A program made the position numbers and the translations under genes. Below are positions 38,165 through 54,187 of a stretch of 64,000 nucleotides of DNA, in pieces. How positions within the stretch are numbered: position 1 is the first letter of the stretch; each line of letters begins with the position of its first letter. A model generated the notes under the pieces. It had not been told where the DNA came from. It worked only from the letters and a program-made list of their open reading frames with translations, and did no database searches. This DNA comes from Minisyncoccota bacterium (GTDB taxonomy: Bacteria > Patescibacteriota > Minisyncoccia > Phycocordibacterales > JAQTLZ01), in NCBI GenBank assembly GCA_028714635.1, contig JAQTLZ010000001.1, forward strand, positions 173,272 to 237,271. Direction: 5' to 3'.

Positions 38165-39877
38165 ATGAAGATCCACTCATTATCTAGAATACGCATCATT
38201 TCTATCGGACTTTTTCTGTTCGCGGTACTCATTGTTGCAAAGTTATATCTTGTTCAAGTGGTAGATGGCCATCTTTATACTGACAAAGCCGATCGCCAGT
38301 ATGTAAAACCGAACGAAAACCTTTTTGACAGAGGTTCTATTTTTTTTCAAACTCGAAGCGGGGATTTGGTCAGCGCCGCGACCTTGAAAACTGGGTATCT
38401 TGTCTCACTCAGTCCTAAATTGGTGACAGATCCCGAAACCACGTTCGAAAAGTTGGAGAGCGTGATTCCGCTTGAAAAAGAATCTTTTTTGGAGAAAGCG
38501 GGCAAGAAAGCTGATCCATACGAGGAGGTGGCTCGAAGAGTTTCTGAAGCAGATGCCGCTAAAATCGAGAGCCTTAAACTTCCCGGAGTTTCTCTCTATA
38601 AAGAAAAATGGAGGTACTATCCTGGAACAACTATGGCCGCGAACGTGCTCGGGTTTGTTGGTTCTGATGGGAAATCTGTTGCCGGTCAATATGGTCTCGA
38701 AAAATATTATGAAGCCGAGCTGAATCGGAGTGATCGAAATTTGAATGTAAATTTTTTTGCTGAAATATTTTCTGACGTAAGCAAAACGCTCGTCGACGAC
38801 AAACAGGCGGAAGGGGACATTGTTTCAACCATAGAGCCTTCAGTCCAGCTTTTTCTTGAAAAACAATTAAAGTCGCTTCAAGCAGAATGGAATCCTGATA
38901 CTTCAGGCGCGATTATTATCGATCCGACAAATGGTGAAGTGTATGCGTTGGCTTCGCTTCCTACATTCGATCCAAACAATTTTAATCTTCAAAAAAATCC
39001 GCGGGTTTTTTCCAATCCGCTCGTCGATAGCGTGTATGAGATGGGTTCGATCGTAAAGCCACTTACCATGGCAGCCGGAATTGATTCGGACACTGTCACT
39101 CCTACAACAACTTACGATGATAGAGGATTTCTGGAACTGAACGGTTTGAAAATTTCGAACTTCGATTTTCGCGGCCGTGGGGTTGTTCCCATGCAGGAAG
39201 TGCTCAATCAGTCTTTGAATACCGGAGCGGCAACCGTCGCTCTTCGAATGGGGAAGGACCTCTTTTCCAAATATATGTTGAATTACGGTTTGGGCGAGGA
39301 GACTGGAATTGACCTCCCGAATGAATCAGCTGGACTTGTAGAAAACTTAAAAAGCCCTCGAGATATCGAGCATGCCACAGCAGCGTATGGGCAGGGAATT
39401 GCACTTACGCCGATCGCCACTGTCCGCGCGCTTTCTACGCTTGGGAACGGCGGGGTTCTCATTGATCCGCATGTGGTAAAAAGTCTCAAATACACGGTCG
39501 GGCTTTCAAAAGATCTGTTCACTGGCAGAGAGGAAAAACGAGTTCTCAAAAAAGAAACTTCAGAAACCATCACCAAAATGCTTGTAGAAGTGGTGGATAA
39601 AGCACTTCGTCATGGCACCATGAAGCTCAAGAATTGGAGCGTAGCGGCGAAAACCGGTACTGCCCAGATCGCAAACCCGGCAGGAAAAGGTTATTACGCA
39701 GACCGCTATCTCCACTCCTTTTTCGGTTATTTCCCAGCGTATAATCCGAAGTTTTTGGTCTTTATGTATATGGTGTACCCAAAAGGAGCGAATTATGCGT
39801 CAGAGACGCTGACCACTTCTTTCTTCGACATCACAAAATTTCTCATAAATTATTACGAAATTCCGCCGGATAGGTAG
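38165..39877 (+). CDS. ftsI: peptidoglycan D,D-transpeptidase (PBP2/FtsI class B)
   Basis: SIVKP (SxxK), SLNTG (SxN), KTGTA (KTG) active-site triad; N-terminal TM; 570 aa. Confidence 0.8.
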   Translation: MKIHSLSRIRIISIGLFLFAVLIVAKLYLVQVVDGHLYTDKADRQYVKPNENLFDRGSIFFQTRSGDLVSAATLKTGYLVSLSPKLVTDPETTFEKLESVIPLEKESFLEKAGKKADPYEEVARRVSEADAAKIESLKLPGVSLYKEKWRYYPGTTMAANVLGFVGSDGKSVAGQYGLEKYYEAELNRSDRNLNVNFFAEIFSDVSKTLVDDKQAEGDIVSTIEPSVQLFLEKQLKSLQAEWNPDTSGAIIIDPTNGEVYALASLPTFDPNNFNLQKNPRVFSNPLVDSVYEMGSIVKPLTMAAGIDSDTVTPTTTYDDRGFLELNGLKISNFDFRGRGVVPMQEVLNQSLNTGAATVALRMGKDLFSKYMLNYGLGEETGIDLPNESAGLVENLKSPRDIEHATAAYGQGIALTPIATVRALSTLGNGGVLIDPHVVKSLKYTVGLSKDLFTGREEKRVLKKETSETITKMLVEVVDKALRHGTMKLKNWSVAAKTGTAQIANPAGKGYYADRYLHSFFGYFPAYNPKFLVFMYMVYPKGANYASETLTTSFFDITKFLINYYEIPPDR

Positions 39878-39964
39878 ATTTGAACTGTGAACCCATTGCG
39901 TGGCTTTCAGAACTTACTAAACAGAGACAGTATATCGGTTTAGCAGTCGAAAAGCTTGAAGCAC

Positions 39965-40639
39965 TTATGGCTTCTTAGGTCCTTTACCAACCAATCTCGC
40001 AAATGATTTTGCGATTGGTTCACCTTTATGAAAGACAAAAGTTCCTTCAACACCAAGTTCTTCTCTAATATCCCAGTAAAATCTTTCTATGCGGTTCGCT
40101 ATCTTCTTTGTAAAACGTGGGTCCACTTGAAAAATACCGTTAATATGGACGAAGCCATTCTCGTGGATATTTAGTTTTGTATTGAAGTGACCAACCTGAT
40201 TTCCTCTGGCACGGACTATCTGGTTTATTGATGCTTTTATACTATCCAGTCTTTTCTGGTAACGCTTACGCTTCTTTTCATCTTTGATGTGGTCAGTCAT
40301 CGTATAGAGCGATGATGTCTGCCTGTTTTCATCGAGAATTGTACCGAGAATGACAATCGCATCTCGTGAATAGACATCAACCATCGAAATAATAATGGTT
40401 AGACTTCGCTTCGGCTCATCTTCAGCAAAGTCATCTTTGTGTTTGCCAAGATACAGAATGAGGTCGGCTTGGTCTCGTAGACGATTGAGACAATCATAAA
40501 CATAATCACTTATGTTTCGTATCTTTCTTGTTTCGTCTATTACTGGTTTCTTTTTTGATTTCATATAGGTGAGGGTTTTGCTTCTTGTCTGCCCTGAGAA
40601 GTATTTGGAACGCTCCAACAATCCTATCTCTTTCTTCAT
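39965..40639 (-). CDS. hypothetical protein (last gene of the R-M/helicase operon)
   Basis: 224-aa ORF, basic, no recognised motif. Confidence 0.35.
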   Translation of the reverse strand: MKKEIGLLERSKYFSGQTRSKTLTYMKSKKKPVIDETRKIRNISDYVYDCLNRLRDQADLILYLGKHKDDFAEDEPKRSLTIIISMVDVYSRDAIVILGTILDENRQTSSLYTMTDHIKDEKKRKRYQKRLDSIKASINQIVRARGNQVGHFNTKLNIHENGFVHINGIFQVDPRFTKKIANRIERFYWDIREELGVEGTFVFHKGEPIAKSFARLVGKGPKKP

Positions 40640-40659: not shown

Positions 40660-41142
40660 TTATTTTTTACTACCATTGATTTCCTTTATCATTTTCCAGC
40701 TCAATTCTTCGACCGTACCTAATTCATCCACAAAAAAGAGATACAGGTTCAATTTATCCATCACATCAAACGGCATCTTTCGTATGACCATTTTTCTGAA
40801 TGATGTAGGAAAAGCAACTCCGTATTTGTAGCCATACTTGTAACCTCTTGCTCCATTACGGTGCATTCTTGTCAGTATCTGTCCCAGTGCAGAGTTGAAG
40901 CTACTACTCTGGCTCCCTGAAGGGTTTATAACCTTTATTGAGGGGTCTCCTTTGGCTTCTATAAGCCAGTATCGTGCAAAGTTATTGTTTCGGACTTTTA
41001 TATCAACACCTTGCTCCCACAACTCCTTACTAGTTAGTGATTTGCTCCAGCCGTTTAGCTCAAGATGTCTAATGACAGACTTTTGTACAAAATCCTCTGT
41101 GATTATCTGTCTTTCTTTTTTGGTTGGTTTAGGGGTAATCAT
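40660..41142 (-). CDS. small PD-(D/E)xK-like nuclease-fold protein
   Basis: GVDIKV...WLIEAKG fits D...(E)xK restriction-endonuclease-like core; 160 aa from Met at 41142 (ORF opens at 41163 with GTG). Confidence 0.4.
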   Translation of the reverse strand: MITPKPTKKERQIITEDFVQKSVIRHLELNGWSKSLTSKELWEQGVDIKVRNNNFARYWLIEAKGDPSIKVINPSGSQSSSFNSALGQILTRMHRNGARGYKYGYKYGVAFPTSFRKMVIRKMPFDVMDKLNLYLFFVDELGTVEELSWKMIKEINGSKK

Positions 41143-41147
41143 AGAAT

Positions 41148-41171
41148 GGTTCACAACGTTCACATATTCAC
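41148..41171 (-). promoter_or_regulatory. triple GTGAA(C/T) direct repeat immediately upstream of the nuclease gene start
   Basis: Gene orientation: GTGAATATGTGAACGTTGTGAACCATTCTATG; 9-bp phasing. Confidence 0.45.
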
Positions 41172-42703
41172 TATGCGTTTATTTCTTCGATAAATCTCGA
41201 AGCTTTTCCTTTCCATAGTCGTGAACGTACATCAAACTTGAAGTCATCTTTGTTCACTGTGTTCACGTGCTTTCCTTCAATACTGATACTTGAGATGAGA
41301 TGCAGGGCTTTCTTTGCTCTTGTCATACCCACATAGAAAAGTCTTCGTTGGCTCTCAATAGTGTCGTTTCCTTTGGCACGATTTGGTATAACACCTTCAA
41401 TAAGACCAATCATAAACACGTGCTCCGCACCAAGTCCTTTCGACTTATGTATAGACATTATGTTTACTCGTTTTTCCACATCTTCCTCAATGAGCACGAA
41501 TAGGTTTTCAAGCTTTTCGTCTTCGGTATCACCCTCAGCATTGTTGTAGAAATCTGCTAGGTCTAGGAAATAAGGCTCCTGAAGTGCCGTATCAATATCT
41601 ACATATGTTGCTTTAGCTTCATTTGGAAGTTTGCTTGCGACCACACCAAATAGCTCTGCAAAGTCCTGTCCACTGGCATAGTGTTTCTTGATGGTCTCGT
41701 AGAGCTTCTTTCTTGATGACAAAACATTGTATCCAATCAATGCGAGATTGAGGTACTTATGCTTACCAAAAAGACTTCTCAGTACCCACGATTTCCTAAT
41801 GATTTCGGGCTCTACTTTAGCAACAAAATAGTTCTTGTAGTCGATACCAGAACCATCAAGTCGGTTAGTGAGGTTCTCCACGAGAAATCTCACAGGACTG
41901 AGTATCAGAACCTTCTCGTCAGTTGAAGCTCCAATGACCTTCTGGACCTCATCCAAGATATAGTCTGCCGTGTTGGTGTTTGAAGGAAACTGTTTTTGTA
42001 CAATAGTCCCAGCTTTACCTGTCTTCTCCCATTTTTTGTCTACTCGTTTTGTGTTGTTCTTTATCAGTTTCGTAGCACTATCTACCACACTGTCAGGACA
42101 TCTGTAGCACTTGTGTTCGTGCTCAAGCTTCTCGTGAGAAGGGTCTGAGTGGAGCGAAATAATCTTGTCGTTATCGGCATCTTTGAAGTCGTAGATACAC
42201 TGGTCATCATCACCAAGAATATAACTCTCGCTCATTACTTCTACGAGCAAATCAATGAGTTCTTGCTCATTTTTATTGAAGTCTTGGTATTCATCCACTA
42301 TCAATACGGAGTACGCTGAAAGCTTATCTTTGAGGTATGCAGGGTTTGATTTTGCATAGCTGACAAAGCGAGCAATCATCTGGTCAAAAGTTGTTGCTGA
42401 GAAGAAATTGCACAAATCATCGAACCCTATAGAAGTGCTTTTTGAGATTTGAGAAAGCTCACTAATCTCTAGCATATCGAGAACGTGCCTACTTTTGTCG
42501 TGATTGTATTTCACAGCAAACTTATGAAGGGTCATACAATTCTCAGGACTGACACCAATCGGTATCAGGGACTTCTTCAGGTCCTCAACAGTTGCGTTGG
42601 TAAAAGAGATAATCAAAACACCATCAAGATTTGGCTTTGATTGAATGATGTTCTTTATGTTTGTTGTTTTACCAGTCCCTGGTCCTGCGAGTAGTATTTT
42701 CAT
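41171..42703 (-). CDS. UvrD/PcrA-like superfamily 1 DNA helicase (short form)
   Basis: Walker A GPGTGKTT, motif II VDEYQD, motif III GDDDQCIY, motif V HKSKGLGAEHVF, motif VI YVGMTRAKKAL; 510 aa. Confidence 0.8.
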   Translation of the reverse strand: MKILLAGPGTGKTTNIKNIIQSKPNLDGVLIISFTNATVEDLKKSLIPIGVSPENCMTLHKFAVKYNHDKSRHVLDMLEISELSQISKSTSIGFDDLCNFFSATTFDQMIARFVSYAKSNPAYLKDKLSAYSVLIVDEYQDFNKNEQELIDLLVEVMSESYILGDDDQCIYDFKDADNDKIISLHSDPSHEKLEHEHKCYRCPDSVVDSATKLIKNNTKRVDKKWEKTGKAGTIVQKQFPSNTNTADYILDEVQKVIGASTDEKVLILSPVRFLVENLTNRLDGSGIDYKNYFVAKVEPEIIRKSWVLRSLFGKHKYLNLALIGYNVLSSRKKLYETIKKHYASGQDFAELFGVVASKLPNEAKATYVDIDTALQEPYFLDLADFYNNAEGDTEDEKLENLFVLIEEDVEKRVNIMSIHKSKGLGAEHVFMIGLIEGVIPNRAKGNDTIESQRRLFYVGMTRAKKALHLISSISIEGKHVNTVNKDDFKFDVRSRLWKGKASRFIEEINA

Positions 42704-42706
42704 AAT

Positions 42707-42730
42707 GGTTCACGATGTTCACTCATTCAC
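42707..42730 (-). promoter_or_regulatory. triple GTGAA(C/T) direct repeat immediately upstream of the helicase start
   Basis: Gene orientation: GTGAATGAGTGAACATCGTGAACCATTATG. Confidence 0.45.
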
Positions 42731-42733
42731 CAA

Positions 42734-45418
42734 CTACTTTGAGAATAGTCGGACCAGCTCATCGAAGTTCTTGGCTGGATTTTTTTCATAGTCTTCTTGT
42801 TTGACGTATAGAGCCTTGTAAACAACTCTACTTTGTCGAGCGTTTACGTCCTCACACCACTTTTGAAGTCTTTCAAACTTGATTTTGTCGTCCTCTTCTT
42901 CACGACCCTTTGTTTCAATGATGTACACCTGTTTCTCATCAACCTTCACAAAGAAGTCTGGGTAATAATTAGCGATAAAGCCTTCAGCATTCTTGTATTC
43001 AATACGGAGAGCAGTCGCTTCCTTGTTTTGGAAGTTCTTCGCAAACGAGATAGTGTCATCGCATTTTTCAAGGAAAGCAGAGAACTCAAGCTCAAAGTTA
43101 CTATCTCCCACAATTCGGTTGAATACGGATTTTTGAGGAATGAGGAACGCCTTATCATTTACCACAAAAGGGCGTGCATCACTTACCTTGATGTAGTTCT
43201 TGATTTCGGTATCACCCTTGTCTTGGACCGTTAGCTCGTTGATTGATTTCTTGAAGCCGTCTTTGATGAGTTTTATGTACTCAACTTCGGATAGGTTACG
43301 AAGAACATTCAGGTCTGTGAGCTCAACCTTGCTCTCAAACATATGGTTCTCAACAAAATCCTTCACTTTGCCAAAGAGGATGTCATAGCATCCGAATAGA
43401 CGCATTTCTCGCATTATTGCCTGTGCAAAGAAGCCAACGACACTCTGGTAGTTTGGTTCAATATCACCACTCAAAATCGTAGTGTGATGGACCGCTTCAG
43501 CAACCACATCTTTGAAGACAATTTCTCGTTTCTCTTGCTCACTGAACGTCTTTACCTGCACCTTCTCGTTTCCAAAAGTAGAAACATCCAAGTCAGCAAG
43601 ATTTTTGTACTCTCGCTGTATTCTGGCGGTCATTACAGGGATTTCAATATCCAGTTTTCCAATGTCCTTCTTGGTGTTCTCTTTATCAATCTCAATCACC
43701 ATAGGAGAAATAGGTTTTGAACCAGACCCCATCAAACGCTTTTCAAGGAGTACGCCTTCACCCTTGATACTCTCTACGAAGTCCATAAAGGCTGGAGTAC
43801 CGATAACACTCACGTATTCATCAATGTCATCTCTTCCAAAATACATTCTTCGGAGACCTCTACCAAGCGTTTGCTCAGGAAGGATTTTACTATCTGAAGC
43901 GTATGGTCGGAGACCAACAATAGTAGTTACGTTTTTTACGTCCCATCCTTCTTTGAGCATCATTACAGACACGATGACCTTGTAAGGACTTTCCCAGCTA
44001 TCAATCTCGTTCGATTGCTTTCGGAGTTGTTCAAGTTCTTCTTGATTTCTACCTGTTGTACTCTCAGAAATCTCACCACTCTTGTTCGTGTGAATAGTAA
44101 GGACCGCACCCTTTAGTTCAGGGTAGTTCATTTCAAGATACTGAGCGACATCATCACAGTTCTTGGTATCGTCAGTCATTATGAAGAGAAGGGACTTCTT
44201 GTTTGTAGGTAGGAGTTGTTCGTATGTCTTTCTCCATTCTTCAACACCAAGGTGAATGTGGTCTCTCCACTTCTCTGTGAATACAACGCTTTGACCTTCT
44301 TTGAGCTTTCCTCGACTTGCTTCGTCTGGCACAACTGGTTGCTTCACAACACGCTGGTGAATTGCTTCAACCAACGGATAGTCAGAAATAGTCTGTACGA
44401 AAATCGCACCTTTGTTGTTTTTAGGTGTTGCTGTTACGTCTAATTGGAGAGAAAGACCGCCACCTTTTTGCTTGAGTTTATTATCAATATCACGAATAGA
44501 TTTGAGCCACGCATTTTCTTCGTGGATATGGTGAGCCTCGTCATTGATAACAATAAGCTCATCAATATCTCGGACTACCATTCCTAAATCAACAGTTCCT
44601 TGATTTGTTTTAGTAACTGGCTTATCTCCAAGGAAATACTCAGAAGCATCCTCATCGTCTGCATCGTAATCTTTTACATCGCTTTCAAACACTCGGTGAA
44701 TGTTAGTGAGGAAAATGTTTCCAGTATCAGAGACGTTTTTGAGCTCATCTTGGAGGTGAAGTGTAATCTGGAAATCATCCTGCCAGTTTTGACCCATATA
44801 ACCGTTATCAGGAAGAACAGGGTCCAAGAAGAATATCTTGTTTCCTTCAAAGTCATTCTTGATACGCTCGAACACGATTACGTTTGGTGCGATGAGTAGG
44901 AAGTTCTTTGCGAGATTTGAGCCTTCTTCGTAGAGTTTATGGAAATACGCCCACGCAATCACCAAGCTCATTACCTTGGTCTTACCAGCTCCTGTAGCCA
45001 TCTTGATGACAAATCGGAGCCAATCCTCGGTGAACATCTGAGGGCTCAAAACGCCTGTAGAGTTGTAGCGTATCAAATCGTACTTATCCTTCACCTGAGC
45101 GACCTCGTAGAGCCATACAACGGTCTCCAGAGCCTCTCTTTGAGAGAAGTAGTATCGGAAGTTGTAGGATGTACCGTCCTGATTGTAGAGAGTGTGTTCT
45201 TCTTTGAACCACCACGTCAAAAGTGCTTTTGAGGTATCGCTAGCACCCTCATAATTATTATCTCGCCACGCTTTTACTTGCTTACGAAGTTCTGCAACGA
45301 GAGGAGGAATGAGCTTCTCAAATCCTTTTTCTCGAAGGTCCTCATCAGCAGGAAACCACCTAATTTCAGGATTGAGGATTGCGTATGGGTCTTTTGGAAA
45401 ATCTTTGTGTAGTGCCAT
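42734..45418 (-). CDS. res: type III restriction enzyme Res subunit (SF2 helicase + PD-(D/E)xK endonuclease)
   Basis: Walker A MATGAGKTKV, DEAHH motif II, helicase motif VI QTLGRGLRR, C-terminal YYPDF...IIETKG nuclease motif; 894 aa; directly follows mod. Confidence 0.85.
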   Translation of the reverse strand: MALHKDFPKDPYAILNPEIRWFPADEDLREKGFEKLIPPLVAELRKQVKAWRDNNYEGASDTSKALLTWWFKEEHTLYNQDGTSYNFRYYFSQREALETVVWLYEVAQVKDKYDLIRYNSTGVLSPQMFTEDWLRFVIKMATGAGKTKVMSLVIAWAYFHKLYEEGSNLAKNFLLIAPNVIVFERIKNDFEGNKIFFLDPVLPDNGYMGQNWQDDFQITLHLQDELKNVSDTGNIFLTNIHRVFESDVKDYDADDEDASEYFLGDKPVTKTNQGTVDLGMVVRDIDELIVINDEAHHIHEENAWLKSIRDIDNKLKQKGGGLSLQLDVTATPKNNKGAIFVQTISDYPLVEAIHQRVVKQPVVPDEASRGKLKEGQSVVFTEKWRDHIHLGVEEWRKTYEQLLPTNKKSLLFIMTDDTKNCDDVAQYLEMNYPELKGAVLTIHTNKSGEISESTTGRNQEELEQLRKQSNEIDSWESPYKVIVSVMMLKEGWDVKNVTTIVGLRPYASDSKILPEQTLGRGLRRMYFGRDDIDEYVSVIGTPAFMDFVESIKGEGVLLEKRLMGSGSKPISPMVIEIDKENTKKDIGKLDIEIPVMTARIQREYKNLADLDVSTFGNEKVQVKTFSEQEKREIVFKDVVAEAVHHTTILSGDIEPNYQSVVGFFAQAIMREMRLFGCYDILFGKVKDFVENHMFESKVELTDLNVLRNLSEVEYIKLIKDGFKKSINELTVQDKGDTEIKNYIKVSDARPFVVNDKAFLIPQKSVFNRIVGDSNFELEFSAFLEKCDDTISFAKNFQNKEATALRIEYKNAEGFIANYYPDFFVKVDEKQVYIIETKGREEEDDKIKFERLQKWCEDVNARQSRVVYKALYVKQEDYEKNPAKNFDELVRLFSK

Positions 45419-45422
45419 AGGA

Positions 45423-47582
45423 TTATAGTTTTACATCAATCACTCTGGTAGTGTCGTTACCGAAGATGTCCACGACCTTTACTGCAACTTTGTAGTCTCC
45501 CTTTGGAAGCTCTTTTGGTGCAGACTTGAACTCAAGATTTCTATTCTTCTTTGTACGGAAACTTTGCCATTCGTTGTCAAAGATATAGTCTCCAGTCCAA
45601 ACATCTTTTTCTTCACCGTCCTCAATAACCTTGATGATTTCTTTACGGTCCGCAAAGTTGTAATCAACCGCCCAGTAATCAATCCAGTCGCTCCACTTTT
45701 TTGTGAGGACCTCTCGTGATACAAGTTCGGTATCTTTGTCCTTTGTTACTTTCAATACCTGACCGTTTTCGATGATTACTTTTGACCTTCCAGCCTTTAG
45801 TTCTTCATCAATTGCACCATTGTCTTGGTTGTAGAAAACAGAGAAGTCAGTAATCTCAATTGAGAGTTCTTTCATTGAACCTCTACCAGTAATAATTGGT
45901 TTGATGTCGATGTAGGCAACGTCATAGAAGTTCACCTGACCACGCTCAACTGCACGCTTATCAAACACTTCACGTGGAATGATTTTGAAAGCAACATCAA
46001 TACCTTCGTCAGCATACTCACCAAAGTTCATTCCCATTTCGTAATCGAAACCGAGAACATCAATTTTAGTAAGATTTTTCTCCTTACACTCACTAACAAT
46101 TTCACGAATAAACTTTGAAGATACAGGAAGGTTGATAGGACCGATTGCTACCAATCTGTCTCGCTTCTTTCCTACAACGTGTGCGAAGCTCTCAACAGGT
46201 TCAGCTTTGTAGGCAGAGAGAATAAGCTTGATGAACTCTTTTTCTTTTCGGTCTGCTTGTTTTGCTTTCTCTTCAGCACGTAAGTCATCGTTAGTATTTA
46301 GGAAGCTTTCACGCTCGTATTTACCAACGTTCAATATCTCAAATGCACGGAAATCTTTTCCTGCTTTTTTGAGTTCACGTTGAATACCAACCATTCGCTT
46401 TCGAGAGGTGTGTATACCGAACTTACCTAGGTCAGTGCCTATCCACTTACGACCAAGTTTTTCAGCCGTTGCAATCGTTGTGCCTGAGCCAACAAAAAAG
46501 TCAGCTACTAAATCTCCCTCATTTGAGGAGGATTTTATAATTCTCTCTAGGAGGGCAGATGGTTTTTGTGTCGGGTAGTCTAGTCGCTCTTTTGACATCG
46601 AGTTTTCGTAAGGGATTTCCCACACATCGTTCGGTATCATTCCTTCCTCTGGATAGTAGGTTCTCCATTTACCTGCATCAAATCTTTTTCTACACACTTT
46701 TCCATTATCATCTTTATCCCTAAAGTGAGATTTTATGTATTCATCAGAGTAAGGAACACGAGCTCCTTTTTCGTTGAAGTACGTTTTGTTTGATTTTCCA
46801 TAGTAAAAAATAGTGTCGTGCTTTTGTGCAAACCTATCATCTGGTCTTCCTAGTGTTGAGTAATACCAAATAATTTCATTCCTGAAGTTTTCTTTTCCAA
46901 ATATCTCATCGAGCGACATTCTCATAAAAGCACTAACTCGCCAATCACAATGCACATAAATACTTCCATCTTCGGCGAGTAGCTCGTGCATCAACTTCAG
47001 ACGCTCGTAAATCATTGCAATAAAGCTGTCTGCACCTTTACCCCACGTATCACGATAGGCAATCTCTTCAATTACAGAGGGCTTCTTTGTGAAGCTGTCA
47101 TTTTCTTCACCAATTGAAATGTTCATTGAAAAGTCAGCTCCCACATCAAAAGGAGGGTCAATATAGATAAGTTTGAGACCCCCTTGAGCTTCAATCTCTT
47201 TTCGCATTGGACCGTTCTTGAGAGATGAGAGAATGAGTTTGTTATCTCCCCAGATTAGTTTGTTGGTCCAGCCAGTAATTTGCTTACCAGAGAAATCAAA
47301 CAACGTACCTTTGTCGCCAAACTCTTTACCTTCTCGTGGTTCATCAATCTGCTCAATTACTTGGAATGGAAGAACTACGTTTGTAACTTCGTTAGTCTTT
47401 CCATTCCAAACAAGCTCGACTTCACGGTCATCTTTGAAGAGAAGGAAGCGGTACTTTTCTGGAAGGGGTTTTCCAGCTTCGAGGAACTTCACAATGTCTC
47501 GCTTTTCGTTGTCAGAAAGATAGAGTGAGCCACTCTTGGTCTGTCCGTTCTTTTGTTGTTCGTTGTCTTTTTTCATATACAT
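45423..47582 (-). CDS. mod: type III R-M DNA methyltransferase Mod (beta-class N6A/N4C MTase)
   Basis: Motif IV IYIDPPFD precedes motif I FFVGSGTTIATAEKLGRKWIGTD (beta-class order); 719 aa. Confidence 0.85.
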   Translation of the reverse strand: MYMKKDNEQQKNGQTKSGSLYLSDNEKRDIVKFLEAGKPLPEKYRFLLFKDDREVELVWNGKTNEVTNVVLPFQVIEQIDEPREGKEFGDKGTLFDFSGKQITGWTNKLIWGDNKLILSSLKNGPMRKEIEAQGGLKLIYIDPPFDVGADFSMNISIGEENDSFTKKPSVIEEIAYRDTWGKGADSFIAMIYERLKLMHELLAEDGSIYVHCDWRVSAFMRMSLDEIFGKENFRNEIIWYYSTLGRPDDRFAQKHDTIFYYGKSNKTYFNEKGARVPYSDEYIKSHFRDKDDNGKVCRKRFDAGKWRTYYPEEGMIPNDVWEIPYENSMSKERLDYPTQKPSALLERIIKSSSNEGDLVADFFVGSGTTIATAEKLGRKWIGTDLGKFGIHTSRKRMVGIQRELKKAGKDFRAFEILNVGKYERESFLNTNDDLRAEEKAKQADRKEKEFIKLILSAYKAEPVESFAHVVGKKRDRLVAIGPINLPVSSKFIREIVSECKEKNLTKIDVLGFDYEMGMNFGEYADEGIDVAFKIIPREVFDKRAVERGQVNFYDVAYIDIKPIITGRGSMKELSIEITDFSVFYNQDNGAIDEELKAGRSKVIIENGQVLKVTKDKDTELVSREVLTKKWSDWIDYWAVDYNFADRKEIIKVIEDGEEKDVWTGDYIFDNEWQSFRTKKNRNLEFKSAPKELPKGDYKVAVKVVDIFGNDTTRVIDVKL

Positions 47583-47602
47583 TTGGTTGATTAGCTAATA
47601 AG

Positions 47603-47821
47603 TTACTTTGGCGACTGGACAAACTTTTCGAGGTCCTCTTTTTTATATCTTCTTGCTCTACGTTCACCAATTCGTATGGCAGGAAGTATGCCTTTCTTAT
47701 CCCATTGCCGAAGCGTGTTGGGATGACACTTGAGATAAGCAGATGCTTCTTCCAAAGTGAGAAGTTCTGGCAAATCCCCATCATTTTGCGGTGTTTTTTT
47801 CGTTGATTTCATACCTAACAT
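47603..47821 (-). CDS. small helix-turn-helix DNA-binding protein (excisionase/MerR-like)
   Basis: LTLEEASAYLKCHPNTLRQWDKKGILPAIRIGERRARRYKKEDLEKFV resembles Xis/AlpA-type HTH; 72 aa; leads the mod-res operon. Confidence 0.5.
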   Translation of the reverse strand: MLGMKSTKKTPQNDGDLPELLTLEEASAYLKCHPNTLRQWDKKGILPAIRIGERRARRYKKEDLEKFVQSPK

Positions 47822-47843
47822 TTGATAACATTATTATACATAA

Positions 47844-47878
47844 CCTTCACAACGTTCACAATGTGCACGGACCGTGAA
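47844..47878. promoter_or_regulatory. GTGAAC-type repeat cluster in the divergent intergenic region between the HTH gene and the 431-aa gene
   Basis: ccTTCACaacGTTCACaatGTGCACggaccGTGAAaacc; adjacent TATGTATAAT (minus-strand sense) could be the HTH promoter. Confidence 0.45.
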
Positions 47879-47889
47879 AACCAATGTAA

Positions 47890-49185
47890 ATGTATATGAG
47901 TAGCCTCAAAACCACTGAGAAGAAGATACTTGAAAAGCTTTTCAATATGGAAGGTGGCTATGTGCTGAGTTTTACTGATAAATCATTCGAGAAGTTCCTC
48001 AAAGATGACTTCAATATCTCGGTCTACAGTGAGATGTACGACTTGGACTTTCCAAGTAAATCAAAAGCAAACCGACTACGTGGTATCTGGAGTGTAGAAG
48101 ATGATGCGAAAGTTGGAGGTATTATTTTGGAACTTGTTGAGTGTGCGGAGACCGACATTTTGACATCAGGCAAAGAGATGTCTGCTATTGAAAAGGACCT
48201 TACTTCAAAGGCACGTGATATAGGGATACGCTTACTGTTTACAGAAATTGCTGACGGAAGCACCAAACCAGAAGTTCAGAAGCTGAAGACTAAGGCTGAA
48301 CTCATAAAGGGTTTCAATAGTATTGATTTCAAGGAGATGGAGCCTAACAAGCGTATCTATCTGCTAAAGGTTCTGTTCTCTTACTACGATGCGATTATTC
48401 GTGCATACAGAGGCTCAGGATTGTTCTATCTCACATCAGGCATTGATGACCTCAATGACTATTTCAAGGTCCTCAGAAAGCGAATGATTGAGCTACTCGA
48501 TACATACGACACTTTTGTTGAAATGAAGAAGTCGCCCACTTATACGGACTTCATTGAGCCTGTAACAAGCCTTTACGCAAGTCAGGACTATCTTGAAGTC
48601 GTGTGGGAAGAAAGCGTGCTCCCTATGCTCATCAATTTCCGTGAAGACATAGCTGATAGAGACCTGTTTGATAATCAGTCAGAAGTTCACAAAGTTCACG
48701 TTGAGGTGTTGAGCTTTTTGGATGCTATCTCAAAAGAGATTGAGGCTCTCAATGGGTATATGAGCCAGCAAACAAAGAAGTTCTACGATACTGACCTACC
48801 AGCAGAGAAAGAAAGGCTATCCAATATCTTTCCATCCGAAGAGCTATACATCACAAAACAAGGTGATGATTTTCGATACAAAGGAAAGCTACTGAACCTC
48901 TCGAAGAAAGCCGACTACTACAAAGTTTTTTGTGCTTTATACGCACTCCTTCCGCAAGGTGGAGAAATTGAATACAAGCCTCTTATAACTGAAATCAAAA
49001 GCAGAATACCGAAGACCAAAGCGAAGTCTGACGAAGAAATGCGAAAGCTTATACAAGGTAATCTCACTGATAAAAGCAACGGCTTTATCCGCTATGCAAA
49101 ACTGCCAAATACGGAGGACAATTCCAAGCCACTCATCGAAGTTATAAAGGGCTTTGGAGTGCGTTTCAACAATAAAGCTGGCTAA
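47890..49185 (+). CDS. hypothetical protein
   Basis: 431 aa, acidic, begins MYM; no recognised motif. Confidence 0.4.
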   Translation: MYMSSLKTTEKKILEKLFNMEGGYVLSFTDKSFEKFLKDDFNISVYSEMYDLDFPSKSKANRLRGIWSVEDDAKVGGIILELVECAETDILTSGKEMSAIEKDLTSKARDIGIRLLFTEIADGSTKPEVQKLKTKAELIKGFNSIDFKEMEPNKRIYLLKVLFSYYDAIIRAYRGSGLFYLTSGIDDLNDYFKVLRKRMIELLDTYDTFVEMKKSPTYTDFIEPVTSLYASQDYLEVVWEESVLPMLINFREDIADRDLFDNQSEVHKVHVEVLSFLDAISKEIEALNGYMSQQTKKFYDTDLPAEKERLSNIFPSEELYITKQGDDFRYKGKLLNLSKKADYYKVFCALYALLPQGGEIEYKPLITEIKSRIPKTKAKSDEEMRKLIQGNLTDKSNGFIRYAKLPNTEDNSKPLIEVIKGFGVRFNNKAG

Positions 49186-49224
49186 TCCTGAAACTTCCTG
49201 AGAATAGATAAGTTCTCCTGACTA

Positions 49225-49259
49225 AAACACCTTTGAAATAAAGGGTGTTTTTTCGTTTT
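49225..49259 (+). terminator. rho-independent terminator
   Basis: aaacaccttt gaaata aagggtgttt then ttttcgtttt. Confidence 0.75.
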
Positions 49260-49361
49260 CCTGAATGTTCAGGAAGTACGCAGAACAATCTCAAAAAGCA
49301 AAAATCAATCTATAGAACTTTTCTTGGCGGAAGTTCACTTACTCATAAAACACCAATGTAA

Positions 49362-49664
49362 ATGATTATGAAAAGAAACAATGAGAGCGATGAGCTCCAC
49401 AACGTCCCTTTGGACGATTACAAAAACTATTACTACTCGAACGATATTGATGTCGCATCAACCCTCATATGTAAAGGATATGAATTGGTAGACATCACAC
49501 CGATAAGCCACAACAAGGCTACCTTCGTATTCAAAAATCATCCTGCAATTACGGATGCGGTTGAAGGCTTTTGGAGCAATCGAATTGAGGTCCGACCTCT
49601 TGAGTTCGCTAACGTCAGAAAAAATCTGAAATCACGCATCTTCGGAATGCGGAAAACTTACTAG
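49362..49664 (+). CDS. small hypothetical protein typical of mobile-element replication modules
   Basis: 100 aa; YYSNDIDVASTLICKGYELVDITPISHNKATFVFKNHPAITDAVEGFWSNRIEV resembles a small family I recall from phage/ICE loci; low certainty. Confidence 0.35.
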   Translation: MIMKRNNESDELHNVPLDDYKNYYYSNDIDVASTLICKGYELVDITPISHNKATFVFKNHPAITDAVEGFWSNRIEVRPLEFANVRKNLKSRIFGMRKTY

Positions 49665-49676
49665 CCCATAAATGAA

Positions 49677-51032
49677 ATGTATATGCAAAACAAAGAAGAA
49701 AGACAAGAAAAAATTATCCTGAAGACAAGTATCACAACGCCAAACGAGCTCTACGAAATGGTGTTTGACCGAAGTGAAAACAAAACCTCTTTCATAAAAA
49801 TTGATAGAGATGGAAAAATTGAGACCCTGCTGGAAGAGGTGGAAATTGGCGGAAGAAAGTATCGACCACTTCCATCTGATTACAACCTCGTGGACAAGAA
49901 CGTCATCTTGTTTCCATCACTTGCTACACCTTATGAAAGCGAGGAAGAAATACTCACTGAAGTACAGCATTTTATCCATAAACACCTAGACATCTCTGAG
50001 GTATTCGAGCGTATAGCTACTTACTACGTTCTGTTTACGTGGCTATTCGACAAGTTCAATGAGGTCCCGTATCTACGAGCAATTGGTGATTTTGGAAGCG
50101 GTAAATCACGCTTTCTCCAAGCTATCGGAATACTCTGCTACAAGCCTGTATTTACTGGAGGTGCGACTACTCCAAGTCCGATATTCCGCATCATCAATGA
50201 GGTAAAAGGAACGCTCATCATAGACGAAGCTGACTTCAAGTTCTCGGATATGACATCAGAGATTGTGAAGATATTGAACACTGGATACCAGAAAGGAATG
50301 TCCGTGCTTCGTTCTGAAGGAAAAGGGACCTTTGAAGTAAAAGCCTACGATGTATTTTGTCCGAAAATTGTAGCCACTCGTGAGACCTTCGCTGACAAGG
50401 CACTTGAGAGCCGATTTCTCGTTGAAGAAATGGGTGCTGGAAAGTTGCGTACCGACATCCCACGCACTCTTGATGAGAGCTTTTATGAGGGTGCTGAATT
50501 GATACGAAACAAGCTCCTGATGTGGCGACTGAAGAACTACTTTGAGCCGATAGAACGTAGGCACGATTTGATTGAAGGAATACATCCACGACTGAACCAA
50601 ATCGTTATGCCACTTTTATCCATCATCAAAGACGAGAGTATCAGAAATCAGCTCAAGACTTTCATTGTTCAATACAACGCTGAACTGGTAGCAGACCGTG
50701 GTCTTTCGTGGGAAAGCGACATTGTTTTTGCAGTCCTGAAATTGGAGTACGAATTGAAAGGAAACGAGCTAACAGTCAAACAGATTACTGACGAAGTGAA
50801 CAAGGAAATAGATGTAAGCGATGACACCCTACAGGCTCGAAAAGTCGGGTGGTATTTACGAGCAAAACTACAACTCAAGCCTTATAAAACTCGAAAAGGA
50901 TACGTACTTTCTTTCAAGGAAAACAGGAAGCGATTGGATATGTGGAAGGAACGCTTTGGTATCACCGATGCGGATATTCGTGGTGAACAAGTGAATGTCG
51001 TGAACGATGCTGAAGCTATTACCAATAACTAA
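49677..51032 (+). CDS. P-loop NTPase, probable replication/primase-associated protein (VirE/D5-like)
   Basis: Walker A AIGDFGSGKS, Walker B LIIDEADF, about 130 aa N-terminal domain before the P-loop; 451 aa. Confidence 0.45.
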   Translation: MYMQNKEERQEKIILKTSITTPNELYEMVFDRSENKTSFIKIDRDGKIETLLEEVEIGGRKYRPLPSDYNLVDKNVILFPSLATPYESEEEILTEVQHFIHKHLDISEVFERIATYYVLFTWLFDKFNEVPYLRAIGDFGSGKSRFLQAIGILCYKPVFTGGATTPSPIFRIINEVKGTLIIDEADFKFSDMTSEIVKILNTGYQKGMSVLRSEGKGTFEVKAYDVFCPKIVATRETFADKALESRFLVEEMGAGKLRTDIPRTLDESFYEGAELIRNKLLMWRLKNYFEPIERRHDLIEGIHPRLNQIVMPLLSIIKDESIRNQLKTFIVQYNAELVADRGLSWESDIVFAVLKLEYELKGNELTVKQITDEVNKEIDVSDDTLQARKVGWYLRAKLQLKPYKTRKGYVLSFKENRKRLDMWKERFGITDADIRGEQVNVVNDAEAITNN

Positions 51033-51041
51033 ATCATTCTT

Positions 51042-51554
51042 ATGGAAAACAAGTCAAAAGGTGGTCCAAAAACAACTGAAGGAAAGGCAATCTCGAAGTA
51101 CAACGCAATCAAACACGGATTGCTCTCAAAAGAGGTGCTTGTTGATGGTGAAGATGAGAAGACACTCCTAGAACTCAATCAAAGCGTACACGACCAATTT
51201 CAGCCAGTAGGACCGATAGAAAAGATGCTGGTAGACCGTGTTGTATCAAATCTCTGGAGACTACGAAGAGCTGTCTTTGTCGAGACTGCAACGATGAACT
51301 GGTATCGAGCTGACATCAATCTCTTTCCAATTGGACAGGATGATGAGCAACAAGAACGACAGAACGTAAAGAATATGTTGAGCAACGAAAGTATCGAGAC
51401 CATTCTTCGATACGAGACAACCATTGAAAGAAGCATCTTCAGGGCTCTTCACGAGCTTGAGCGTATACAGGCTAAAAGAAACGGGAAAGACGTTTCAATT
51501 CCAGCCGTGGTCGATGTAAACGTGGATAGTTCGTTTCGCAAAAATGACCAATAA
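51042..51554 (+). CDS. hypothetical protein
   Basis: 170 aa, helical, no motif. Confidence 0.35.
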   Translation: MENKSKGGPKTTEGKAISKYNAIKHGLLSKEVLVDGEDEKTLLELNQSVHDQFQPVGPIEKMLVDRVVSNLWRLRRAVFVETATMNWYRADINLFPIGQDDEQQERQNVKNMLSNESIETILRYETTIERSIFRALHELERIQAKRNGKDVSIPAVVDVNVDSSFRKNDQ

Positions 51555-51569
51555 CAGTGAGGTTCTCAA

Positions 51570-52211: not shown

Positions 52212-52225
52212 TCAAAAATGTTATT

Positions 52226-52468
52226 ATGAGTAAGTTACACGAAAGCCTGAATAATGCTCCGCAACCGCAACCTTCCAAGGAGCAGGACCAGCTTTTGTGT
52301 GAAGGTCCAAAGCACCTGCTCTCGAAAGATACCCTTGATGCTTTGGAAGAACTCGGTGGTGTTCTCAGGAACATTCACAGGAGAATGGTATCTGAAGGAT
52401 ACGAAATTGTAGATGGAAACATCCGCAAAGTAGTACCGCAAAATGTAAATGTATATGAAAAAGCCTAA
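52226..52468 (+). CDS. hypothetical small protein
   Basis: 80 aa; overlaps the recombinase start by 20 nt. Confidence 0.3.
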   Translation: MSKLHESLNNAPQPQPSKEQDQLLCEGPKHLLSKDTLDALEELGGVLRNIHRRMVSEGYEIVDGNIRKVVPQNVNVYEKA

Positions 52469-54146
52469 TATCAAAACTGAAAAAGATTTGATTGCCGAAA
52501 TACTCTCTGGTAAATACCGTGATTGTCATTTGATATATAACAGAAAGAGTACGGACGAAGCTGACAACCAGAAGAACTCCATTTCATATCAAAAGATAGA
52601 GAACACTCGTTTTGCACATCGAGAAAAACTTTCCATAGCACAAATCACCATCAAAGGTTTCTCTGCTGACGGCATCATTTCCGAAAAGCACTCAGGGTTT
52701 ACTGAGGACGATGATATAAACATTACCGATGACGGTTTGGTTCAATACAGAATTGATAGACCAAAGTTCCAGAGAATGCTTCAGTTCGTTAGCCAAGGGT
52801 ATTTCAAAGGTGTCGTATGTCTTTGTTGGGACCGTATCAGTAGAAATAAAGGAGATGACACTCTTATCCGAAAGCTTATGCGTAAGGGTGTAGATTTTCG
52901 CTTTGTATACGCTAAATACGAGAAGACAAGTTCAGGTGCTCTTCATATGGATATTGATGGAATGTTCTCTCAACATCACTCACGTGTTACAAGTGAGAAA
53001 GTAACGCTCACCATCCGTAACTCACGAGAGAAAGGCATATGTACTTACAGAGCACCAATCGGCTATCTCAATCAAGGGAAAATGGAAGATAAACCACTAG
53101 ACCCATTCCGTGCACCCATAATCAAGCAGATGTATGAGTATTACGCTACAGGAGACTGGAGCCTGTCAGACATTGCTCGCTTTGCAAATGACCAAGGTTT
53201 TACCACAGTACCGATGAGGCGTAGAAGGACAAAAGAAGAAATGCTCGCTGAGGAAGACGAGTTTGAGGAAATAGAAAAGACCTCACGTCCTGTAAACGAA
53301 AACCATATCAGCAGAATACTTACTAATCGCTTTTATACAGGAAGGACCCTCAACTCAGAAGGTAAATATATCCAAAGTATCAGCCACGTAGCTATCGTAA
53401 GCGATGAGCTCTTTGATGACGTTCAGGCTGTGCTCAAAAAGAAGAAAGTGAGCGTTCACTATACGGAAAAACTCGACCAGCCACTTCGAGGTGTTGTACG
53501 TTGTGCACATTGTGAACGTGTATACACACCATACATAAAGAAAGGTATTCAATACTACAATTCACGCTGTACAAAAGACTGTAAGAATACGGACAAGAAC
53601 TTGAGTTTTGAGAAGATTGATAAGAAAATCAGTGGACTTATTACAGGTCTGCATTTTACCGATGACGAAATAGAACAGATGGATGCTCGTGCAGGTACAG
53701 AGATTGCGTTGCTCGAAGAGAAGCGTCATAAAACACTCGACCAAGTAGAGAGAAAAAAGAAAAAGATACGAGAAGACCTTGCATACCTACGCTCGAACAA
53801 AATACCTCTCTTGAAGGCTGGAGTGTATACACCTGAGAGTTATGTTACCGAGGAAACAAAACTTGATAGTGAACTTTCTTTGTTGCAGAGCGAAGAGCAA
53901 GCATCAGACATCGCAATGCACGAGACAATGAAAGAGGTTCAAAAACTTTCAGAACTCGTCAAAAACGTTGCTCTATATTATCAATTCGCAAAACCACACG
54001 AAAAAGAGCAGATTGTTCGTGTAATCTTTTCAGAACTTTCTATTGCTCAAGATGTGTTGCAATTCAAGGTCAAAAAAGGATTTGAAGCCTTTGAAAACCG
54101 TTTCCTTGCTATTTGTGACCCTACAGAGAATCGAACTCTGATTTGA
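52449..54146 (+). CDS. large serine recombinase
   Basis: Resolvase catalytic domain with Ser in YNRKSTDEADNQ and CLCWDRISRN (RxSR-like) motif, recombinase domain, C-terminal Cys4 zinc ribbon CAHCERV...CTKDCK; 565 aa. Confidence 0.85.
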   Translation: MYMKKPNIKTEKDLIAEILSGKYRDCHLIYNRKSTDEADNQKNSISYQKIENTRFAHREKLSIAQITIKGFSADGIISEKHSGFTEDDDINITDDGLVQYRIDRPKFQRMLQFVSQGYFKGVVCLCWDRISRNKGDDTLIRKLMRKGVDFRFVYAKYEKTSSGALHMDIDGMFSQHHSRVTSEKVTLTIRNSREKGICTYRAPIGYLNQGKMEDKPLDPFRAPIIKQMYEYYATGDWSLSDIARFANDQGFTTVPMRRRRTKEEMLAEEDEFEEIEKTSRPVNENHISRILTNRFYTGRTLNSEGKYIQSISHVAIVSDELFDDVQAVLKKKKVSVHYTEKLDQPLRGVVRCAHCERVYTPYIKKGIQYYNSRCTKDCKNTDKNLSFEKIDKKISGLITGLHFTDDEIEQMDARAGTEIALLEEKRHKTLDQVERKKKKIREDLAYLRSNKIPLLKAGVYTPESYVTEETKLDSELSLLQSEEQASDIAMHETMKEVQKLSELVKNVALYYQFAKPHEKEQIVRVIFSELSIAQDVLQFKVKKGFEAFENRFLAICDPTENRTLI

Positions 54147-54187
54147 GCCTTGAGAAGGCTCCGTCCTGACCGTTAGACGATAGGGCC
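54116..54187 (-). tRNA. tRNA-Glu (anticodon CUC); 3' part overlaps the recombinase gene end; one acceptor-stem mismatch
   Basis: Reverse complement GGCCCTATCGTCTAACGGTCAGGACGGAGCCTTCTCAAGGCTCAAATCAGAGTTCGATTCTCTGTAGGGGTC; D-arm and anticodon loop TTCTCAA closely resemble bacterial tRNA-Glu; acceptor pair 2:71 is G:G. Confidence 0.55.

Follow-up and report, generated by a model that had tools for sequence, protein, structure and literature searches.

GTGAAC triplets in an integrated element of Patescibacteria: candidate iteron-type sites of a P-loop/winged-helix protein

The window analysed here is a stretch of 64,000 nucleotides from a Minisyncoccota bacterium (contig JAQTLZ010000001.1), a genome of the Patescibacteria or candidate phyla radiation (CPR), and it carries an integrated element of 14.3 kb that extends from approximately 39.9 to 54.15 kb. 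Within this element the hexamer GTGAAC and close variants of it recur as phased direct repeats, here called triplets, which we consider are probably the iteron-type sites of a small, P4-like integrative replicon that is widespread in Patescibacteria. As judged from sequence comparisons, the likely binder of the triplets is a replication-type protein, with a P-loop and a predicted winged helix, that the element itself encodes. To our knowledge, the replication and control of mobile elements in CPR bacteria are almost completely uncharacterised, and hardly any genetic tools exist for these hosts.

Phased triplets are specific to the element and accompany its P-loop gene

The element comprises a minus-strand cargo operon, encoding a 72-aa helix-turn-helix (HTH) protein of the HTH_17 family, the Mod and Res subunits of a Type III restriction-modification (R-M) system, a UvrD/GajB-like helicase and two unknown proteins, and a divergent operon consisting of a 431-aa gene, a terminator, genes for a DUF5659 protein, the 451-aa P-loop protein and three small proteins, and the recombinase gene. 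An earlier inspection of the DNA without database searches (the sequence-only reading) had described three triplets at cargo genes, and these (A, B and C; Table 1) indeed exist on the minus strand at the places it named. Restriction of the motif to the element, for which that reading had proposed a genome-wide count, was borne out within the window, in that GTGAACNNNGTGAAC occurs four times in the window and all four copies (4/4) lie inside the element. Only 0.01 exact copies would be expected in the 64-kb window, and none of 100 shuffles reached four; the lone hexamer GTGAAC is hardly enriched (37 observed, 27.6 expected). When one mismatch was tolerated and spacings of 6-13 bp were tried, matches clustered solely at 8- and 9-bp spacing, and all except one fell within 41.1-53.5 kb. 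With at most one mismatch and these two spacings, seven sites are found in the 14.3-kb element, against 0.12 expected, and one in the 49.7 kb of host DNA, against 0.41 expected. Four of the element's sites, D, E, F and G, go beyond those previously described.

The claim that the hexamers recur at 9-bp spacing holds for C (9+9) and fails for A and B, in which an 8-bp step precedes a 9-bp step (GTGAAT-N2-GTGAAC-N3-GTGAAC); the latter two sites are 85% identical over 27 nt (repeat family D12). Across relatives, 54 non-redundant triplets divide into 35 with (8,9), 16 with (9,9) and three with (9,8) spacing, and the arrays thus consist, as iterons do, of several short repeats phased at approximately one helical turn (8+9 or 9+9 bp). 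The interpretation of the repeats as direct repeats of a protein-binding type is upheld, as they are element-specific and phased and C is placed like an operator on a promoter. The motif at the left edge of the element, which had been offered as a relative of the triplets, has 7-bp spacing, lacks the architecture of the family and is probably not part of it. Alignment of the left edge with the tRNA-Glu end for mapping of the attachment site revealed only a GTTCAAATC-like stretch in common.

Sites A, G, B, C and F are on the minus strand and sites D and E on the plus strand. The switch between strands occurs at approximately 49 kb (minus, 41149-48699; plus, 50983-53517) and, because F is antisense to its gene, it is placed inside the core operon and not at the divergent promoter. 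Three related loci (L021, L032 and L033; relatives are designated by such numbers throughout) have a strand pattern like that of the window, and the switch may reflect polarity relative to an origin.

Repeated codon pairs, either Val-Asn (GTG AAC) or Cys-Glu (TGT GAA), might generate such arrays by chance or as a coding artefact, given that 3-codon peptide repeats can yield a 9-bp period and that D and E encode VNxVNVVN and CxHCER, respectively. This explanation is extremely improbable, being refuted by the counts (four to seven sites observed against 0.01-0.12 expected), by the frame shift between the hexamers of D, and by the non-coding location of the triplets in distant relatives; A, B and C are non-coding as well. 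At D, where the DNA also encodes VNxVNVVN in close relatives, the first hexamer is read in another frame (GGT GAA CAA) than the second and third (GTG AAT, GTG AAC), and yet in sequence and in its 8+9 spacing it agrees with A and B, which are non-coding. Selection therefore appears to act on the DNA rather than on the peptide. At E, relatives keep GTGNAC although the residue encoded there may be E, A, V or G, which likewise argues for selection at the DNA level. As a separate observation, C and E share an exact 17-mer, GTGCACATTGTGAACGT, in inverted orientation (I17), and the unusual GTGCAC variant is likewise present at both C and E of L028, which suggests a concerted change.

The comparison covered approximately 120 related loci, of which 25 came from a scan of GTDB genomes with the P-loop protein and a further 80 from metagenomes, which were scanned with a profile into which a Desulfarculus homologue of 41% identity had been built. 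A triplet was scored as near the P-loop gene if it had at most two mismatches and a spacing of 8 or 9 and lay between -160 and +350 nt of the P-loop stop codon. Triplets defined in this way occur in 18/19 loci with at least 80% protein identity to the window, in 17/22 at 60-80%, in 13/17 at 50-60% and in 15/27 at 40-50%. Overall, 63/85 loci carry one, compared with 24/373 control windows in the same loci, a degree of adjacency to the putative initiator gene that would be expected of iterons.

HTH-bearing relatives of the P-loop type have triplets at the same four places as the window, namely the HTH promoter, the 3′ end of the P-loop gene, the zinc-ribbon codons of the recombinase and the DNA after the last R-M gene. 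Site D is the most widely conserved member of the family, and triplets at or just past the 3′ end of the P-loop gene are found in relatives down to approximately 42% identity. In distant relatives the triplets are non-coding and lie just past the stop codon, where two convergent triplets surround a spacer of 60-100 bp, as in L115 and L123 (GTGAACx3, approximately 97 bp, GTTCACx3) and in L090 (61 bp, 70% AT). The Desulfarculus relative (L044, 41% identity) reads CTGGAC-8-GGGGAC-8-GGGGAC, 79 bp of AT-rich DNA, and GTCCCC-9-GTCCCC-8-GTCC, and thus combines the 8/9-bp architecture of the window with another hexamer, GGGGAC. An initiator gene adjoined by convergent sets of repeats on both sides of a spacer is the classic layout of an origin. 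Arrays are also present in minimal elements that consist of DUF5659, P-loop and recombinase genes (L035) or of recombinase and P-loop genes (L044).

Table 1. Coordinates of triplets, genes and other features in the window, or in related loci where a locus is named
Feature	Position	Strand	Description
Site A	41149..41171	-	GTGAAT-AT-GTGAAC-GTT-GTGAAC, 8+9, then CATTCT and ATG; occupies a 28-nt spacer in which the helicase stop overlaps hexamer 1 and the ATG of the 160-aa gene lies 6 nt past hexamer 3
Site G	41243..41266 (two full hexamers, 41252-41266)	-	GTGAAC-ACA-GTGAAC, then a weak third hexamer, GATGAC; sense strand, within the 3′ end of the UvrD-like helicase gene
Site B	42708..42730	-	GTGAAT-GA-GTGAAC-ATC-GTGAAC, 8+9, then CATT and the helicase ATG; occupies the spacer from the Res stop to that ATG, which lies 4 nt past hexamer 3
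Site C	47845..47868	-	GTGCAC-ATT-GTGAAC-GTT-GTGAAG, 9+9, then GTTATG and TATAAT
Site F	48685..48699	-	Doublet GTGAAC-TTT-GTGAAC, antisense within the 431-aa gene; kept at the equivalent place in L001, L021, L032 and L033
Site D	50983..51005	+	GTGAAC-AA-GTGAAT-GTC-GTGAAC, 8+9, within the 3′ end of the P-loop gene; next ATG 36 nt downstream
Site E	53494..53517	+	(TTGTAC-GTT-)GTGCAC-ATT-GTGAAC in the serine-recombinase gene, CxHCER zinc-ribbon codons
Left-edge motif	39880..39892	+	TTGAAC-T-GTGAAC, 7-bp spacing; element-host junction adjoining a penicillin-binding protein gene
17-mer GTGCACATTGTGAACGT	47852-47868 (C); 53503-53519 (E)	- (C); + (E)	Inverted pair
Triplets right behind the last R-M gene	L001 8637; L002 15083; L008 16264; L017 15394; L029 3394; L038 3263		As site B
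P-loop NTPase	49677..51032	+	451 aa; Walker A GSGKS, Walker B IIDEAD; predicted C-terminal winged helix
HTH protein	47603..47821	-	72 aa; HTH_17, BldC/Xis-like (Pfam HTH_17, 1.9e-13; PDB, BldC)
Promoter of the HTH/R-M operon	47861-47856 (-35); 47838-47833 (-10)	-	TTGTGA-17-TATAAT
AATGTTA-TCA-AATGTTA direct repeat	47815..47832	-	Between the -10 box and the HTH start
Large serine recombinase (integrase)	52449..54146	+	Right end of the element; 3′ end overlaps the tRNA-Glu gene
tRNA-Glu(ctc)	54115-54187	-	Only match of an Rfam scan of the element
UvrD helicase, GajB-like	41171-42703	-	Starts directly at its P-loop
Two proteins without family match	40660-41142; 39965-40639	-	Behind the helicase
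Intrinsic terminator	49224-49251	+	After the 431-aa gene; strong, 11-bp stem then T run
Motif AATGTAAATGTATATG	47883-47898; 49355-49370; 49670-49685; 52442-52457	+	At the 431-aa, DUF5659, P-loop and recombinase ORFs
Motif CCAAATGTATATG	47570-47582	-	At Mod
16-mer AATGTAAATTTTTTTG	38744-38759; 56294-56309	+; -	Identical copies in inverted orientation that flank the element, approximately 1.1 kb beyond its left and 2.1 kb beyond its right edge
LOOT RNA	L036 5594-5713; L027 6037-6162; L031 7782-7899; L041 8216-8334	-	Rfam RF03000
RVT_1 reverse transcriptase	L009 16076-17462; L010 15129-16515		Beside a bAvd gene

Candidate binders of the triplets

The P-loop protein belongs to a family with at least 1485 homologues. 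Two relatives (P0233 and P0238) are fused to Prim-Pol (PF09250) and PriCT_1 (PF08708) domains, and these fusions place the family among plasmid and viral replication proteins. In the AlphaFold model, residues 345-430 form a predicted winged helix (helix-strand-helix-helix-strand-strand-helix) with a predicted local distance difference test (pLDDT) score of 70-88, and Foldseek ranks winged-helix DNA binders highest by probability, along with the winged-helix domains of MCM, ORC and Cdt1. Thus, the protein is predicted to combine a DNA-binding domain with a kinship to replication proteins, as would be expected of an initiator acting on iterons. A scan of viral_contigs with the P-loop protein found nothing. 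Some lineages of the family have other hexamers (GGACTT-type in L112 and L117, ATGTAC in L104, GTGAAG in L105), and a covariation of hexamer type with the recognition helix of the winged helix is only suggestive.

The sequence-only reading had named the small HTH protein at the head of the cargo operon as the obvious binder. On this account the triplets would be operators on which head-to-tail HTH monomers autoregulate C and block or tune A and B. The protein is a small MerR-like winged HTH (wHTH) without dimerisation or effector domains, and in this respect is of the BldC type; its best PDB matches are the BldC entries 6AMK and 6AMA (E=0.002-0.01), and its NCBIfam matches are TIGR01764 and HTH_BldC, the latter below cutoff. 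BldC binds 9-bp direct repeats cooperatively, head-to-tail, as 2-4 protomers (PMC5859096), and the related phage protein Gp36 represses transcription via direct repeats (PMC12266134, in which stoperators are also mentioned). Site C, furthermore, overlaps the -35 box and spacer of the HTH gene's own promoter.

The distribution of the triplets nevertheless makes this assignment unlikely. Eleven triplet-carrying elements (L022, L023, L027, L031-L033, L035, L036, L038, L039 and L041) have the full cargo side present on the contig and no member of the HTH family as judged with the family hidden Markov model at E<=1, and each of them keeps its triplets where the other elements have them, at the 3′ end of the P-loop gene and in the divergent control region. 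Conversely, in three relatives of the Toprim type the recognition helix CHPNTLRQWDKKG is identical, whereas the GTGAAC arrays are degenerate or no longer recognisable, and a search for alternative iterons in Toprim-type elements found none. The repeats and the HTH gene consequently fail to co-occur in related elements in the manner expected of BldC-type operators. As the triplets are kept in elements without the HTH gene and have degenerated in elements that combine it with a Toprim primase, they follow the P-loop gene and not the HTH gene, and they extend to distant P-loop relatives in other phyla. The invariance of CHPNTLRQWDKKG among aligned homologues, set against arrays that come and go, led us to reject the HTH protein as the main binder.

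A different repeat accompanies the HTH gene. AATGKTA-N3-AATGKTA was found in every HTH-bearing relative, Toprim-type elements included, and the AATGTTA repeat of the window is a better candidate operator for the BldC-like protein than the triplets are. The first in-frame ATG of the HTH gene (47821) falls inside this repeat, and the true start may therefore be at 47812. All 352 homologues of the protein are from Patescibacteria, and ten of the contigs that encode them represent one element family in which the HTH gene and an R-M system, usually of Type III, are divergent from a core of DUF5659, then either a P-loop protein of approximately 455 aa or a Toprim primase of approximately 730 aa, and then a serine recombinase. 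A further match of the HTH protein is to MAD1 from the methylation-associated defence system (PADLOC, 1.1e-11; NCBIfam, 9.7e-06, below cutoff), and a small HTH_17 gene seems to recur as the first gene of methyltransferase-based defence operons.

Another of the small, conserved core proteins (DUF5659 or the 170-, 205- or 80-aa protein) or the host DnaA protein might instead bind the triplets, for partition, silencing or recruitment of the host initiator, a possibility that we also regard as doubtful. The 9-mers TGTGAAYNN are similar to relaxed DnaA boxes, and the dispersed sites, mostly co-oriented with local genes, are reminiscent of centromere or operator repeats and stoperators, such as omega heptads, ParG boxes and L5 stoperators. 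DUF5659 is encoded directly upstream of the P-loop gene in most elements, but it is also present in Toprim-type elements without arrays; the 170-, 205- and 80-aa genes are missing from L035 and L037, both of which have arrays; and in L044 the triplets are surrounded only by the recombinase and P-loop genes. A universal host factor would leave the GGGGAC or GGACTT hexamers of some P-loop lineages unexplained, and the nearly 50 kb of host DNA in the window is devoid of arrays apart from the single one-mismatch site noted above.

In the model that we favour, the winged helix of the P-loop protein would recognise the hexamer GTGAAC, and three protomers, or three domains of one oligomer, would cover a triplet of 23-24 bp (8+9 or 9+9 bp). 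The protein would serve as a replication initiator or helicase, and site D would be the counterpart of the origin or crr of P4, or of the ori beside rep in Staphylococcus aureus pathogenicity islands (SaPIs). Bound at C, the same protein might also gate transcription of the cargo, in the way that iteron Rep proteins control the promoters of their own genes. Sites A and B, which take up nearly all of the non-coding DNA between cargo genes, might act as auxiliary iterons (through crr-like looping, titration or handcuffing), as polar roadblocks that stop read-through from the R-M genes into the helicase and downstream genes in the manner of L5 stoperators, or as both. A more far-reaching version, which we offer tentatively and hold to be rather improbable, is that these elements constitute an undescribed and abundant replicon family of Patescibacteria whose triplets are at once origin iterons and gene-boundary gates, whose initiator couples the expression of defence cargo (R-M and helicase) to the replicative or excised state, and whose DNA-binding domain has converged on the P4 alpha hexamer without detectable homology.

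Several observations weigh against the P-loop protein as an initiator that acts through the triplets. The ATPase core of its AlphaFold model is of low confidence (mean pLDDT 58), Foldseek returned no significant match with the model (best E=0.12), and a PDB sequence search gave no match. Homology between the protein and P4 alpha was not detectable beyond Walker A. The mapping of hexamer on recognition helix is imperfect, L101 retaining GTGAAC despite a Ser at the key position. AT-rich stretches flanked by repeats, as in L044 and L090, are not evident beside D, which in the window has neither an inverted partner nor a clear AT-rich unwinding region nearby. The iteron model neither requires that the A and B triplets lie 4-6 nt from start codons nor predicts any strand arrangement, and yet the sites are divided by strand into A, B, G, C and F as against D and E. 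Finally, since BldC-type HTH proteins bind 9-bp direct repeats (PMC5859096), the HTH protein could bind the triplets too. The sites themselves, their enrichment, their conserved positions and their association with the P-loop gene, independent of the HTH gene, are observed; that the P-loop protein binds them, that they function in replication and that they affect transcription is what we infer.

If the model is correct, it supplies a concrete cis-element, the GTGAAC triplets, together with its trans-factor, an abundant and unannotated P-loop/winged-helix protein, and a minimal replicon (P-loop gene, triplets and serine integrase) that can be tested as a vector backbone. R-M systems and other defence cargo in these genomes would then be carried by a P4-like integrative replicon. 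The case also corrects an attractive assignment, in that a small HTH gene beside a repeat array does not necessarily encode the binder of the array.

Start codons, transcription and cargo

Each triplet had been said to end in GTGAACCATT right before a start codon, which is correct for A and B and incorrect for C. The ATG cited for C consists of the three bases directly 5′ of the -10 box TATAAT and does not serve as a start codon; that of the HTH gene is 24-33 nt downstream of the site. Site C overlaps the -35 box and spacer of the promoter of the HTH/R-M operon, which with 10/12 matches is the best sigma-70-like promoter in the element, and similar arrangements recur in related HTH-bearing elements. 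As C is upstream of its -10 box, it is not part of the HTH mRNA.

These positions bear on the proposal of a signal at the RNA level, according to which GUGAAC repeats before AUG would provide translational control or element-specific initiation for genes that lack a Shine-Dalgarno (SD) sequence. Sites A and B and eight non-redundant intergenic triplets of relatives do end -2 to 14 nt from an ATG, and none of the element genes has an SD sequence. Such a signal is very unlikely, however, since C is 5′ of a -10 box, D, E and G lie in open reading frames (ORFs), F is antisense, and the triplets of distant relatives follow stop codons and are in many cases oriented opposite to the gene. All 23 intergenic non-redundant triplets face the downstream gene; of those other than the eight, some are located 23 nt upstream (the HTH promoter type) and some 165-275 nt upstream (including those of L027, L031, L036 and L041), and the distance to the ATG varies from -2 to 275 nt, unlike the fixed short distance 5′ of a start codon that characterises a translation signal. 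Of the coding non-redundant triplets, 30 are sense and one is antisense, but D and E each stand for a single class of homologous sites, and those of the F class run antisense. Neither A nor B shows significant RNA structure (z = -1.0 and -1.4, respectively), and the closeness of these sites to ATGs is most simply explained by intergenic spacers of only approximately 28-30 nt, which leave no other non-coding DNA available. The sequence-only reading had also pointed to the missing SD sequence. An SD-like tetramer precedes 9/46 host ORFs and 0/11 element ORFs, and since most host genes of the window likewise do without one, nothing can be concluded from the lack of it in the element.

Other explanations for these sites were considered and rejected. 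A and B do not appear to be sigma-70 promoters, as the -10-like hexamers GAAAAT and TATGAT, 16-17 bp past hexamer 2, overlap or follow the start codons, and their register differs between C-type sites; because the P-loop of the helicase starts at residue 6, a transcript from the -10-like hexamer of B could not encode the protein. Leaderless promoters were discounted, TAnnnT being present 5-9 nt before the ATG in 0/11 element ORFs as against 14/46 host ORFs. Recognition sites for the Type III enzyme were discounted as well, as arrays are also found in L001, where the adjacent R-M system is of Type II (HpaII-like), and in elements without R-M genes. The conserved location of A and B after R-M genes and their co-orientation with transcription would fit auxiliary iterons and perhaps polar roadblocks. 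Triplets right behind the last R-M gene are also present in six related loci (Table 1).

In four of the elements that lack the HTH gene (L027, L031, L036 and L041), the cargo-side triplet is followed approximately 60-70 nt later by a LOOT RNA (70-84 bits), behind which secreted or membrane proteins are encoded; LOOT, an orphan RNA motif, thus belongs to the element family. In L009 and L010, a reverse transcriptase gene is situated beside a bAvd gene beyond the R-M cargo, in an arrangement like that of a diversity-generating retroelement. The helicase of the window is followed by two proteins without family match, and the same helicase in L001-L004 is followed instead by a protein of 296-300 aa; the helicase and downstream genes may constitute an uncharacterised defence module behind the Type III R-M genes.

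Searches of the core proteins against Pfam, PHROGs, PADLOC and NCBIfam gave no annotation, and among the papers searched none was found on this element family. The terminator after the 431-aa gene implies that the DUF5659 and P-loop genes need a promoter of their own, to be sought in the 110 bp behind it. A further motif specific to the element, AATGTAAATGTATATG, ends in ATG, and at four plus-strand ORFs (431-aa, DUF5659, P-loop and recombinase) this ATG lies at the start or 6 nt into the ORF; a shorter form, CCAAATGTATATG, plays the same part at Mod. With up to three mismatches, six matches to this type of motif were counted against 0.61 expected. It contains a start-stop (ATG TAA) followed by ATG TAT ATG, is kept at the start of the divergent gene in relatives, and is reminiscent of the start-associated sequences in cluster K mycobacteriophages. 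The inverted pair of AATGTAAATTTTTTTG copies outside the element is probably due to chance.

Comparison with known systems

The arrangement differs from that of R-M operons controlled by C proteins, as the regulator is of the HTH_17 and not the Xre type (HTH_3), and the repeats, in place of inverted C-boxes, are direct and also occur far from R-M genes. Like BldC, lambda Xis, Pukovnik Xis and D29 Gp36, the small HTH protein is a MerR-like wHTH, and the repeat period of BldC is 9 bp; BldC sites, however, are AT-rich (AATT-N4-C), and the GTGAAC repeats do not track the HTH gene.

The stoperators of mycobacteriophage L5 are sites of the gp71 repressor, single asymmetric 13-mers that act as roadblocks. 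The triplets resemble them in being asymmetric and scattered, in lying for the most part co-oriented with local transcription and in many cases in tiny intergenic spaces that touch stop or start codons, and in that one site overlaps the main promoter. They differ in that the site is a triplet of hexamers, in that the likely binder is a replication protein and not a dedicated repressor, and in the antisense orientation of F.

SaPIs and phage-inducible chromosomal islands (PICIs) have origins beside rep, and the origins of superfamily 3 (SF3) initiator-helicases contain arrays such as the GAGGC pentamers of SV40 large T antigen (LTag) and the E1 sites of papillomaviruses. L044, L090, L115 and L123 are similar to these in having oppositely oriented sets of short repeats (5-6 bp) around a presumably unwindable spacer directly beside a gene for a putative initiator-helicase, whereas the lineage of the window keeps a single triplet (D) there, inside coding sequence.

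The closest parallel is with the satellite phage P4. Its annotated record lists 16 'ori type 1 repeats' at 9-11-bp spacing, with the sequence TGTTCACC (reverse complement GGTGAACA) and the variants GGTGAATA, GGTGAAGA and TGTGAACA. These share with the triplets a GTGAAC core whose sixth base may also be T or G (in the element, GTGAAC, GTGAAT and GTGAAG occur) and a similar phasing, and GGTGAACA itself is present at site D. A literature search for TGTTCACC returned primer matches only. The P4 repeats in crr are located just 3′ of the gene for the alpha primase-helicase, beside attP and int, for which D would be the counterpart, and those in ori lie in the divergent control region beside ORF88 (excisionase-type, HTH_17/Vis-type), for which the counterpart would be C. 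Both elements are integrative and tRNA-associated. According to Ziegelin et al., P4 alpha reportedly binds the type 1 repeats via its C-terminal winged-helix domain. In contrast to P4, the element has a serine recombinase as its integrase in place of a tyrosine recombinase, its triplets have fixed 8+9 or 9+9 spacing, additional sites occur in coding sequences and cargo intergenic spacers, and its hosts are Patescibacteria. An alignment of the P-loop family profile with P4 alpha by hhalign covers only 36 columns around Walker A (probability 1.9%), and the origin-binding domain of alpha (1KA8) is absent from the 50 best fold matches listed for the P-loop model. The putative binder is thus not detectably homologous to that domain, and the similarity to P4 is one of mechanism, possibly a convergence, rather than of family membership. 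Iterons as such are a known kind of feature, and what is new is this family, its hosts, and the scattering of its sites into coding sequences and cargo boundaries.

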